In this document: positions 3,600-6,500 of the stretch, piece after piece
How the letters are laid out: each line of letters opens with the position of its first letter
How positions within the stretch are numbered: the stretch's first letter is position 1
From: Escherichia coli
Lineage (GTDB): Bacteria > Pseudomonadota > Gammaproteobacteria > Enterobacterales > Enterobacteriaceae
Reading direction: 5' to 3' (one strand)
DNA length: 64,000 bases
Assembly (NCBI RefSeq): GCF_003018235.1
Contig: NZ_CP027437.1
Program-made: the position numbers and the translations under genes
Notes under the pieces: generated by a model
Databases searched by the model: none
Told to the model about the DNA's origin: nothing
What the model saw: only the letters and a program-made list of their open reading frames with translations

Positions 3600-6500
3600 T
3601 TACGCCTTCTCAATGTTGACTAAGAACGCTTTATATTCCGGCGTTTGCGAGTTTGCATCACCGACATTCGGCGTCAGAGTGTTAGCGATATAACCTTTAC
3701 GCGCGACACCCTCAAAGCCCCAGTGGATTGGAATACCCACCGTTTCAACCTGCTGACCGTTTACATTCAGCGGCTTCAGACGGCGCGTTACCACAGCCAC
3801 CGCGCGGATAAAGCCACGCTTGCTGGATACGGTGACACGGTCGCCATTGGCGATGCCTTTCGCCGCCGCCAGCGTTTCGCTGATTTCCACAAACTGTTCC
3901 GGCTGAGCAATGGCGTTGAGCAATGCATGCTTAGTCCAGGTGTGGAAGTGCTCGGTCAGACGATAGGTCGTACCCACATACGGGAACTGCTCTTTTTTAC
4001 CCATCCGCAGCGCGTCTTGTTCATACAGACGAACGACCGGGTTAGACACCACGTTCGGATGCAGCGGGTTAGTGCCCAGCGGCGTTTCAATTGGCTCGTA
4101 GTGTTCCGGGAACGGACCTTCCGCCATTTTGTTGATGGCAAACAGGCGTCCCATCCCTTCCGGCTGCATGATAAACGGTCCGGTTGGCGTACCTGGCGCG
4201 GCATTGCCGAAGTCCGGAATATCGTTACCCGTCCACTTGCTGCCGTTCCACTGGATCAGCATCCGTTTCGGATCCCACGGTTTACCGTTGATATCCGCCG
4301 AAGCACGGTTGTACAGCACGCGACGGTTGAGCGGCCACGCCCAGGCCCATCCCAGCGTATTCCCCAGACCGGATGGGTCGGAGTTATCGCGGTTAGCCAT
4401 CTGGTTGCCCTGCTCTGTCCAGCTACCGGTGTAGATCCAGCAAGACGATGCGGTTGTACCGTCATCACGCAGATGCGCAAAGCTACTCAGCAACTGACCT
4501 TTCTTCGCAATCAGCACGCCATTGGCATCATAGAGATCTTCCAGCGCGTAGCCGTTGTTCTCTTTAGCTACTTCGTCAGATTGCGGTTCGTGCGGCTGCT
4601 TGTAGTTCCAGCTCATCTTCATCAGCGGTTCTACGCCTTTACCACCTTCGGCCTGGTACAACTCGCGCAGATGATGGTAGATACCCGCCAGAATTTCGCC
4701 GTCGTTACGCGCTTCGCCCGGCGCGTCCTGACCTTTCCAGTGCCACTGCAACCAGCGACCGGAGTTAGCGATAGAACCATCTTCTTCAGCAAAGCAGGTC
4801 GAAGGCAGACGGAATACTTCAGTCTGAATAGACGCCGGATCGACATCGTTCGACTCGCCGTGGTTCTGCCAGAAGGTTGAGGTTTCAGTCACCAGCGGAT
4901 CGATAACCACCATGTACTTCAGTTTGCTCAGGCAGCTCACCACTTTGTTTTTGTCCGGGAAGGACGCAACCGGGTTAAAGCCCTGGCAGAAATAACCGGT
5001 GACTTTGCCTTCGTCCATCATGTTGAAATACTTGATGACGTCGTAGGTCTGGTCCCACTTCGGCAGCCAGTCGTAGCCCCAGTTGTTCTCTTTTTGCGCG
5101 GCATCGCCGTAGAAAGATTTCATAAGGCTAACGAAGAACTTCGGATAGTTGCTCCAGTAGTTCACCTGATCAGCCAGCGTCGCTTTCGGCGTGTTCGCTT
5201 CCAGATACGACTGCAAATCAACCTGTTTTTCTGACGGCAGCGTCAGATAACCCGGCAGGCTGGTAGAGAGCAGGCCTAAGTCGGTCAGACCCTGAATGTT
5301 GGAGTGACCACGCAATGCGTTCACGCCGCCACCGGCCATACCCATGTTACCGAGCAGTAACTGGATCATCGCCATAGTGCGGATGTTCTGCGCACCCACG
5401 GTGTGCTGCGTCCAGCCCAGCGCGTACAGGAAGGTGGTGGTGCGATCCGGCGCGCTGGTGGAGGCCAGCACTTCACACACTTTCAGGAAGTCGGCTTTTG
5501 GCGTACCGCAGATGTTTTCTACTACATCCGGCGTGTAGCGGGAAACGTGCTCTTTCAGCAGGTTCCACACACAGCGCGGATGAGTCAGTGTTTCATCGCG
5601 TTTCGCATAGCCGTTTTCATCGAACTGATAGTTCCAGGACGATTTATCGTACTGGCGTTTTTCAGCGTCGTAGCCGCTGAACAGACCGTCTTCGAAAGCA
5701 AAATCATCACGCACCAGCAGGCTGGCATTGGTGTAATGCTTAACGTATTCGGCATTGATTTTGTTGTTTTCGATCAGGTAGCGCAAAACGCCAGACAGGA
5801 ACGTAATGTCCGTACCGGAACGAATAGGTGCGTAAATATCCGCTACAGAAGCGGTACGCGTAAAACGGGGATCGACAACGATCAAGGTTGCATCGTTGTT
5901 GTTTTTCGCTTCCATCGCCCAGCGGAAACCGACGGGATGCGCTTCAGCAGCGTTACCGCCCATCACCATCACGACGTTAGCGTTTTTGATATCCACCCAG
6001 TGGTTGGTCATCGCACCGCGACCAAATGTTGGAGCAAGACTTGCTACCGTTGGTCCGTGTCAGACGCGCGCCTGGTTGTCTACCGCCAGCATCCCGAGGG
6101 AGCGGGCAAATTTCTGGGTCAGCATCCCGGTTTCGTTGCTGGCACCGGAGGCACACAGCATACCGGTAGAAAGCCAACGGTTTACCGTTACGCCCTGCTC
6201 GTTCTTTTCAATAAAGTTAGCGTCACGGTCAGCTTTCATCAGCTTCGCTATACGGGAGAATGCTTCTTCCCAGCTAATGCGCTGCCATTTGTCAGAACCT
6301 GGCGCACGATATTCCGGGTAGCGCAGACGGTTTTCGCTGTTGACGTAATCCAGCAAACCGGCCCCTTTCGGGCACAGCGCACCACGGCTTACCGGATGAT
6401 CCGGGTCACCTTCAATGTGATAAATCGCTTCTCTGGCGTTTTTCGCGCCATCACCCAGGCTATACATCAATAGCCCGCAACCTACGGAACAGTATGTGCA

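Follow-up and report, generated by a model that had tools for sequence, protein, structure and literature searches.

E. coli has three classical selenoprotein genes, and fdnG is among them. Its in-frame UGA and the stem-loop behind it were characterized in 1991, and biologically there is nothing new in finding them here. In that year Berg, Li, Heider and Stewart, and Berg, Baron and Stewart, both in J Biol Chem, reportedly found the stem-loop to be required for decoding of the fdnG UGA, and Berg et al. are said to have described SelB binding and SECIS-dependent selenocysteine (Sec) insertion for K-12 fdnG, which has the same element as the gene analyzed here. The fdnG hairpin was reportedly also the subject of a 1996 study by Hüttenhofer et al., and a selenium-containing, full-length FdnG of ~113 kDa is said to have been reported already for K-12. 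Two further E. coli genes are close relatives. The paralogue fdoG (formate dehydrogenase-O) lies at a separate locus, with fdhD and fdhE nearby, and shares only 77% protein and 74.5% DNA identity with fdnG, but carries the same 59-nt element (Rfam score 84.3) and has its Sec at codon 196. The product of fdhF is the cytoplasmic FDH-H, of 715 aa with Sec at residue 140, and its SECIS (RF01988, SECIS_2) is the experimentally dissected model.

The determinants described for the fdhF element are a minimal hairpin that begins at a distance of 11 nt from the UGA, a bulged U17 and the loop nucleotides G23 and U24 (PMC8659212). The general bacterial SECIS (bSECIS) model behind the bSECISearch criteria has four features: an upper stem of 4-16 bp capped by an apical loop of 3-9 nt; a G in loop position 1 or 2, usually followed by G or U, in the pattern N1 G [G|U] N N2 with N1-N2 pairing; a distance of 16-37 nt from the UGA to the apical loop; and a minimum free energy (MFE) of -7.5 kcal/mol or lower (PMC13188914).

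The window analyzed here is a 64,000-nt stretch of the E. coli chromosome around fdnGHI. Its fdn locus has the same operon (fdnGHI, with fdnG being b1474 in K-12) and the same neighbors (yddG, yddM and adhP) as that of K-12; the two fdnG genes are 98.0% identical in DNA and their products differ at three amino acids. The source strain departs from K-12 at 60 nucleotides within fdnG and, elsewhere in the window, in IS elements and RHS content. All features described below lie on the minus strand.

A mechanical list of open reading frames (ORFs) does break fdnG at the TGA, as the first-pass annotation had warned of a naive caller, giving one ORF of 195 aa (6060..6647) and another of 803 aa (3600..6011). 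The same annotation had held that the two ORFs share a frame, are parted only by the TGA at 6062-6060 and belong to one CDS, and coordinates and translation agree with this. The intervals are multiples of three (6647-6062 = 585 = 3x195; 6059-6011 = 48 = 3x16), the frame runs without discontinuity across the TGA, and translation of 6647..3600 gives 1016 codons with codon 196 as the sole internal stop. We therefore describe fdnG, encoding the formate dehydrogenase-N alpha subunit, as one CDS at 3600..6647, with 1015 codons plus stop and Sec assigned to codon 196. Translated through the TGA, the gene product scores 1622 bits on the NCBIfam equivalog TIGR01553 (formate dehydrogenase-N alpha; cut-off 814), and the match is a single stretch that covers residues 2-1014 and spans that codon. 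The gene is 99.8% identical in DNA to annotated fdnG in matching genomes, and the RefSeq entry for this 99.8%-identical gene is a single 3048-nt CDS with no pseudogene flag. At the N terminus, the Tat (twin-arginine) signal region (MDVSRRQFFK...ALA, 6549..6647) is recognizable in translation by its SRRQFFK motif; the signal presumably extends over 33 residues in E. coli FdnG.

Assignment of the UGA at 6060..6062 to Sec draws on the sequence, on structural alignment and on homologues. The UGA column falls on position 196 of chain A in the crystal structure of E. coli Fdh-N (PDB 1KQF), which is printed there as the non-standard residue X, and the fdnG product is identical to this chain over residues 149-453, residue 342 excepted. 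H197 and R446 are both present in this alignment, so that FdnG has the arrangement of a Sec or Cys ligand followed by His (U196-H197) together with the conserved Arg446. The same column is shared with other chains named selenocysteine-containing by their depositors, 6SDR among them. Across 121 homologue matches sampled from genome contigs and spread over many phyla, the codon at this position is TGA in 117 and Cys in four; 94 distinct Sec-type homologues were analyzed further.

An in-frame UGA in a continuous frame is thus joined, directly 3' and within the coding region, by a stem-loop. In an Rfam scan of the 64 kb the sole match was SECIS_3 (RF01989) at 6007..6065. It covers the full model (1-59), and its 84.3 bits exceed the gathering score of 63 (E = 1.4e-18 for the entire window). 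SECIS_2, the fdhF family, was considered and set aside, as the element reaches only 28.8 bits there, where the gathering score is 70; it belongs to SECIS_3. ViennaRNA and the covariance model place the stem-loop proper, with lower stem, internal loop and apical hairpin, at 6017..6059, and the predicted SelB-binding apical hairpin at 6031..6048, beginning 11 nt after the UGA. In both, the apical helix has five base pairs, AGCAA (6045..6041) with UUGCU (6037..6033), closing a GUC loop (6040..6038); alternatively, with A25-U29 open (numbered along the 59-mer), it has four base pairs and a 5-nt AGUCU loop. Below the helix come a bulged U at 6046 and a GG/CC step (6048..6047 with 6032..6031), and the lower stem extends to 6059..6017. 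This E. coli lower stem departs from the consensus register of Rfam, in which A8-C48 and A12-G44 would mismatch, and the register given by ViennaRNA is shifted by one.

The first-pass annotation had also placed a SECIS stem downstream of the UGA. The hairpin and its identity as a SECIS stand, but the apex as drawn does not: a 6-bp stem of AGCAAG (6045..6040) with CUUGCU (6038..6033) was rejected because it leaves U6039 as a 1-nt loop and cannot form, the true apex being AGCAA/UUGCU with the GUC loop. The folding check proposed for the region after the UGA recovers the hairpin in ViennaRNA, with an MFE of -17.4 kcal/mol for the 59-mer and -12.7 kcal/mol for the 43-nt stretch 6017..6059 (nt 7-49). 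The stability of the 59-mer is nevertheless unexceptional (z = -0.77; 39 of 200 shuffles fold equally well or better) and uninformative alone, and we therefore do not rely on it as evidence. The signals that do stand apart from chance are the covariance-model match, the frozen synonymous sites and the covariation.

When the element is set against the general bSECIS model, it agrees in all four features and shows no difference from the model (PMC13188914). The loop is 3 nt long (GUC), on a helix of 5 bp plus 2 bp across the bulged U; the loop sequence reads A-GUC-U, with A25 and U29 able to pair, and this pair is standard in 94/94 homologues; the UGA lies 19 nt from the loop; and both folding energies given above fall below the limit. 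The comparison with fdoG and fdhF that had been suggested also shows shared features. The 59-mer is identical in fdoG, and fdhF shares with fdnG the UGAC context, the 11-nt spacer, the GG/CC step, the bulged U17 (6046 in fdnG, counting from the U of UGA) and the loop nucleotides G23 (6040) and U24 (6039). The two elements differ in the helix (UGCA/UGCA in fdhF, AGCA(A)/(U)UGCU in fdnG), in the lower stem, and in the loop, which is GGUC in fdhF and (A)GUC(U), one nucleotide longer between the helix strands, in fdnG.

The comparative data place a constraint on the RNA itself. Both fdnG of K-12 and its paralogue fdoG carry the identical 59-mer. Against K-12 fdnG there are no differences between CDS nt 399 and 756, as against 60 sites gene-wide, and against K-12 fdoG a run of perfect identity extends over 71 nt (5995..6065), the longest between the two genes, the next being 35 nt. 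Twenty consecutive synonymously variable codons are unchanged between fdnG and fdoG, a run reached in 63 of 20,000 shuffles. Pairing across the 94 Sec-type homologues is 88% in the apical helix and, in the Rfam register, 70% in the lower helix; both sides have changed at 4/7 apical pairs, with such compensatory changes at pair 21-33 in 39 sequences, 22-32 in 32 and 24-30 in 35. Shuffles give a covariation score of 0.106 and slid registers 0.06-0.13; the observed score is 0.261, a value reached by 0/500 shuffles. Conservation in columns 1-20 is to some extent built in, as the homologue search pattern fixed part of the hairpin 5' strand through the protein motif. Of the Sec-type sequences, 87/94 have a GUC or GUU loop, which is absent from 4/4 Cys-type ones. 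These Cys-codon homologues (n = 4 only) keep the protein motif, with 2-5 of the seven apical pairs and no GU loop, and although few, they suggest that the apical helix may be lost where there is no Sec codon.

Could the TGA be a genuine stop, leaving fdnG either a pseudogene truncated at codon 195 or two genes of 195 aa and 803 aa? The mechanical ORF list does split here, and the second ORF opens with an ATG at 6011; that ATG, however, is a conserved internal Met213 within a GRGAMT motif and not a start. The 820 codons past the TGA are intact and their translation is 99.7% identical to that of K-12, the family profile crosses the TGA in a single stretch, the crystal structure has one chain with residue 196 at the TGA position, and TGA is kept in nearly all of the homologue matches from many phyla, such that we consider a genuine stop extremely improbable. 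It might instead be argued that the hairpin is a by-product of the conserved protein motif (HGPTVASLAPTFGRGAMT) and that the UGA is read by near-cognate suppression, for example by tRNA-Trp, with no dedicated RNA signal. The region does encode a highly conserved active-site motif, and the folding energy is ordinary. Synonymous sites are nevertheless exactly frozen over the element, the compensatory changes in the helix force paired amino-acid changes at residues 202 and 205 (A/A, P/G, S/G) and the Cys-type homologues have the same motif in the protein but neither the helix nor the GU loop. We give this account almost no weight.

The frozen tract has a further conceivable origin, namely that the 71-nt identity between fdnG and fdoG reflects recent gene conversion between the paralogues and not selection on an RNA element. 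Absolute identity over 71 nt, reaching 12 nt past the Rfam model, is what such an event could leave, and exchange of short tracts is possible between paralogues of one genome. The identical 59-mer, however, recurs elsewhere among the sampled Enterobacterales, in genera such as Photorhabdus, Citrobacter and Enterobacter, in which the flanking third positions have diverged, and conversion would have to have recurred independently in each lineage. At 14 loci that were selected for the exact 59-mer, the flanks are 76-87% identical to the window and third positions 44-64% identical; the profile over these loci is circular for its central bin owing to the selection, and only the divergence of the flanks is informative. 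Conversion is accordingly a highly unlikely source of the identity, and the nature of the element would stay unchanged in any case. The divergence around a shared 59-mer counts against the by-product account as well.

The best explanation is that codon 196 of E. coli fdnG, the UGA at 6062..6060, is the site of selenocysteine recoding and that the hairpin is its SECIS, a reading to which we assign a probability of roughly 0.97. It draws on frame continuity, gene identity, the SECIS-family match, the RNA-level constraint, covariation and the sel genes of the species. On this reading, the fdnG product is the catalytic subunit of the nitrate-inducible formate dehydrogenase-N, and the mRNA directly 3' of the UGA folds into the bacterial SECIS hairpin. 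Judging from the literature, elongation factor SelB, with GTP and Sec-tRNA(Sec), would bind the apical hairpin by way of the bulged U and two nucleotides of the loop, G and U; the tRNA would be the selC product, which on established knowledge is charged through SerRS, SelA and SelD. Hairpin-bound SelB would be tethered at the right distance from the UGA (11 nt) and, with the UGA in the ribosomal A site, could deliver Sec-tRNA(Sec), competing there with release factor 2. SelB binding and Sec insertion at this UGA are thus probable by analogy with the systems already described, and Sec196 would become a ligand of the molybdenum center. The comparative data leave this picture unchanged, and illustrate how an RNA signal embedded in coding sequence holds synonymous sites fixed and even ties the choice of one amino acid to that of another.

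In annotation, a single CDS (3600..6647) should replace the two ORFs, with codon 196 marked as a translation exception. If they are left apart, a major enzyme of anaerobic respiration has its catalytic subunit miscalled as two fragments or as a pseudogene.

The invariant tract of 59-71 nt, common to fdnG, fdoG and several Enterobacterales genera, also takes in the lower stem and internal loop and runs on for 12 nt past the Rfam model. In work on fdhF, such outer parts as the internal loop and lower stem have been treated as largely dispensable for SelB binding. The invariance might point to a second constraint besides SelB recruitment, such as a kinetic role for the lower stem in setting the pace of the ribosome at the UGA, or a further partner, RNA or protein, but we regard this as unlikely; combined constraints from protein, codon usage and SECIS explain the invariance equally well.

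A search of the 64-kb window for selC and other tRNA genes returned none, and selAB and selD likewise lie outside it. The sel genes are nearly universal among complete E. coli genomes, and a species survey found selC in 5424/5426, selAB in 5425/5426 and selD in 5425/5426. Within the window, fdnG is followed by the two remaining operon genes. fdnH, the next, encodes the beta (Fe-S) subunit at 2703..3587 (minus strand; NCBIfam TIGR01582, 482 bits), and fdnI, the last, encodes the gamma (cytochrome b) subunit at 2057..2710 (minus strand; NCBIfam NF007558, 486 bits, 1-217 of 217); the two are annotated as fdnH and fdnI, respectively, in matching genomes.

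The reading frame of fdnG (minus strand, 3600..6647) is continuous. It opens with an ATG at 6647..6645 (−), which in the minus-strand sequence read from 6720 to 5900 is preceded by a Shine-Dalgarno-like AGAGGAAAG, and the frame thus opened contains a TGA at 6062..6060 (−). The mechanical ORF list divides the gene into ORFs of 195 aa (6060..6647, minus strand) and 803 aa (3600..6011, minus strand), just as the first-pass annotation had predicted for a naive caller. Its claim that the two ORFs share a frame and that the TGA lies at 6062-6060 also holds, because the distances 6647-6062 = 585 and 6059-6011 = 48 are each divisible by three. 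Between the two ORFs lie the TGA and 16 sense codons, the latter left out only because the ORF finder restarts at the next ATG; translation of 6647..3600 yields 1016 codons, with codon 196 as the sole internal stop.

The 901 bases around the UGA are 99.8% identical to RefSeq E. coli genes annotated as fdnG, and of the 5426 complete E. coli genomes, 5425 contain a match to them. In the matching RefSeq records fdnG is a single 3048-nt CDS with no pseudogene flag, in keeping with the one CDS (3600-6647) proposed at first pass, and is followed by fdnH and fdnI, with yddG and yddM-adhP-maeA on the flanks; in the window, two ORFs downstream of fdnG match the FdnH and FdnI models. When the FdnG product was searched with X at position 196, it scored 1622 bits (cut-off 814) against the NCBIfam equivalog TIGR01553, formate dehydrogenase-N subunit alpha, and since the match is one stretch covering residues 2-1014, it runs through the TGA. 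The region also gives a gap-free alignment with the E. coli formate dehydrogenase-N structure 1KQF (chain A), in which codon 196 coincides with residue 196, a non-standard one printed as X; an X likewise stands in this column in chain 1H0H from D. gigas and in the 'selenocysteine-containing' chains (6SDR and others). The conserved TGA, the intact frame downstream, the profile match and the structural alignment leave no room for a true stop, whether in a pseudogene or between two separate genes. Sequences resembling this part of fdnG also occur at 25 places in E. coli plasmid records, for example a copy annotated fdnG with 72% identity in a 197-kb record (match H27, NZ_JBXULY010000002.1 150017-150309).

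An Rfam scan of the whole window returned exactly one match at the gathering threshold, to SECIS_3 (RF01989) at 6065..6007 (−), which covers the full model at 84.3 bits (gathering score 63, E = 1.4e-18) and bears out the earlier view that the hairpin downstream of the UGA is a bacterial SECIS. The Rfam structure and the ViennaRNA minimum free energy (MFE) structure of this 59-mer, numbered from 6065, concur at the apex: a GG/CC step (G18 G19 with C34 C35), a bulged U (U20, window 6046), an apical helix (A21-A25 with U29-U33) and an apical loop (G26 U27 C28, window 6040..6038) together form an apical hairpin at 6048..6031 on the minus strand. The 6-bp AGCAAG/CUUGCU stem drawn in the first-pass annotation has to be given up, as its G26-C28 pair would close a loop of one nucleotide, a steric impossibility; the apex is modeled instead as a 5-bp helix with a triloop, or as 4 bp with an AGUCU loop if A25-U29 is open. 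The E. coli lower stem fits the Rfam consensus register imperfectly, and the ViennaRNA register is shifted by one.

The UGA is separated from G18 by 11 nt and from the loop by 19 nt; with the U of the UGA counted as 1, U17 is the bulged U, and G23 and U24 belong to the loop. Positions and spacing alike coincide with the SelB determinants of fdhF, namely U17, G23 and U24 in a minimal hairpin set 11 nt away from its UGA (PMC8659212). The fdhF SECIS (SECIS_2) works likewise, with spacer, bulged U and loop GU in common, and assignment of the fdnG element to SECIS_2 itself was rejected (28.8 bits, gathering score 70). The scan of the fdhF locus in K-12 also showed, between gltP and yjcO (sampled locus L003, 1912-2432), five tandem copies of Rfam naRNA4, a REP-derived nucleoid-associated RNA unrelated to SECIS. 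A general bacterial SECIS model specifies a loop of 3-9 nt starting with G then G/U, an upper stem of 4-16 bp, a spacing of 16-37 nt and an MFE of at most −7.5 kcal/mol (PMC13188914), and the fdnG element lies within all of these limits, nucleotides 7-49 of the 59-mer having an MFE of −12.7 kcal/mol. Folding of the RNA after the UGA, suggested at first pass as a check, does produce a hairpin, but its stability is unexceptional. Because the MFE of the 59-mer is only 0.77 sd below that of dinucleotide shuffles, 39 of 200 of which fold equally well or better, a drawable hairpin is weak evidence by itself.

Comparison with the K-12 paralogue fdoG, also suggested at first pass, is more telling: its 59-mer is identical and receives the same Rfam score. 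Over a codon alignment with 74.5% DNA identity, the longest perfect run between window fdnG and fdoG is 71 nt (6065..5995 in the window, its first base 3 nt ahead of the UGA), the next being 35 nt. Twenty consecutive synonymously changeable codons are all unchanged, a run reached in only 63 of 20000 shuffles; over the whole alignment, just 57% of such codons are unchanged. The element is likewise identical in K-12 fdnG; the two fdnG genes differ at 60 of 3048 nucleotides and 3 amino acids, with none of the 60 sites between CDS nt 399 and 756. Gene conversion could contribute to the identity between fdnG and fdoG, although it cannot explain an identical 59-mer across genera and would leave the identity of the element as a SECIS unchanged. 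The exact E. coli 59-mer occurs in at least 17 sampled loci, including Photorhabdus, Citrobacter, Yersinia, Providencia, Enterobacter, Superficieibacter and E. albertii; as these were chosen by the 59-mer itself, only their flank divergence is informative, and for 14 loci identity to the window over the flanking 780 nt is just 76-87% (44-64% at third-codon positions). That the tract of 59-71 nt is invariant throughout, even where SelB binding is believed not to need it, likely reflects combined protein, codon-usage and SECIS constraints.

That the hairpin is a mere by-product of the protein motif is contradicted by these frozen synonymous sites, and also by compensatory changes among homologues and by the homologues with a Cys codon. 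We scanned genome_contigs with a degenerate pattern for the motif QAR[VI]-TGH-H[GSA..][PA]TV, permitting TGA, TGC or TGT, which gave at least 121 matches in at least 120 loci; the 121 matches listed comprise 117 with TGA and 4 with a Cys codon. The protein motif in the pattern predetermines parts of columns 1-20 and leaves the 3' strand free to vary. In a gap-free alignment of the 94 distinct TGA-type 59-mers among the matches listed, scored against the Rfam structure, pairing in the apical helix amounts to 88%, with pair 21-33 as GC 45, UA 15, CG 13, AU 6, UG 5 and GU 3, pair 22-32 as GC 59, CG 22 and UG 10, pair 24-30 as CG 49 and AU 33, and pair 25-29 as AU or GU without exception. The covariation score for these 94 is 0.261. 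Shuffles give 0.106 ± 0.007, none of 500 attaining 0.261, and sliding the 3' partners by 1-3 columns gives 0.06-0.13. The RNA pairing governs even the amino acids at residues 202/205, which among the matches listed are A/A (56), P/G (22) or S/G (10). The loop columns of the 94 read GUC 71, GUU 16 and CUC 7. The seven CUC sequences (L036, L049, L053, L085, L101, L102 and L110 among the sampled loci listed) are Desulfovibrio-type FDH with the motif AALAES/PALAES and pair poorly in the SECIS_3 register; they probably use another register or a differently placed SECIS hairpin.

The four Cys-codon homologues among the matches listed keep the protein motif VCHGPTV..L..TFGRGAMT, form only 2-5 of the 7 apical pairs, carry CAC, CGC or GCC where the GU loop would be, and have S/A or T/A at residues 202/205. 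This small sample (n = 4) points the way one would expect of a helix that serves UGA decoding and not the protein. Paralogue, covariation and natural control are three independent lines which show that the fdnG element goes beyond chance and beyond protein coding.

Neither a tRNA gene nor sel genes were found within the window. Among the 5426 complete E. coli genomes, selC is present in 5424, and selAB and selD, with K-12 loci as queries, in 5425 each; the selC query matched features annotated tRNA-Sec at 100% identity. Given this near-universality in the species, absence of the sel genes from the source genome is very unlikely. That fdnG has a UGA with a SECIS is already known; its reading as selenocysteine and the need for the stem-loop are reportedly to be credited to Berg, Li, Heider & Stewart and to Berg, Baron & Stewart (J Biol Chem 1991). 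In the described mechanism, SelB·GTP·Sec-tRNA(Sec) is bound at the apical hairpin, the lower stem is opened by the approaching ribosome, SelB competes with RF2 to deliver Sec-tRNA(Sec) once the UGA is in the A site, and the hairpin refolds, ready for the next ribosome (PMC13188914). In fdnG, the complex bound at the apical hairpin would deliver selenocysteine at UGA 196 in competition with RF2.

The window may hold a second kind of recoding. An IS3-family insertion sequence at 21389-22746 (+), between yddE and nhoA, has an orfA with HTH_28/HTH_Tnp_1 and an orfB with rve integrase-core domains in a −1 frame relation, and the sequence A AAA AAA G lies at 21870, close to where orfA ends. This arrangement is typical of programmed −1 frameshifting; in the closest complete genome the site carries no IS. 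A second IS3-family element (33764-~35000, −) adjoins the VgrG gene, its orfB (284 aa, rve domains) again in a −1 frame relation to orfA. At 9283-11864 (+) lie two neighboring ORFs of ~420 aa each. For the ORF at 9283..10548 (+), Pfam gives weak matches to LRR_4/LRR_8 that score close to the gathering threshold, and in its place the best-matching complete genome carries an IS200/IS605 tnpA together with a pseudogene; the ORF at 10611..11864 (+) occupies the position of an annotated leucine-rich-repeat protein in the closest genomes (K-12 yddK region). Any one of the 5426 complete E. coli genomes matches at most 86-89% of window 7000-31999 in one place, at ~98% identity, so the source strain is not among them. 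A variable island spans 24466-36218; several of its small ORFs have no Pfam match, and it contains a truncated ISAs1 transposase (187 aa, DDE_Tnp_1_assoc only), as well as ORFs of 1554 aa and 637 aa where the closest genome has an RHS protein and VgrG, respectively.
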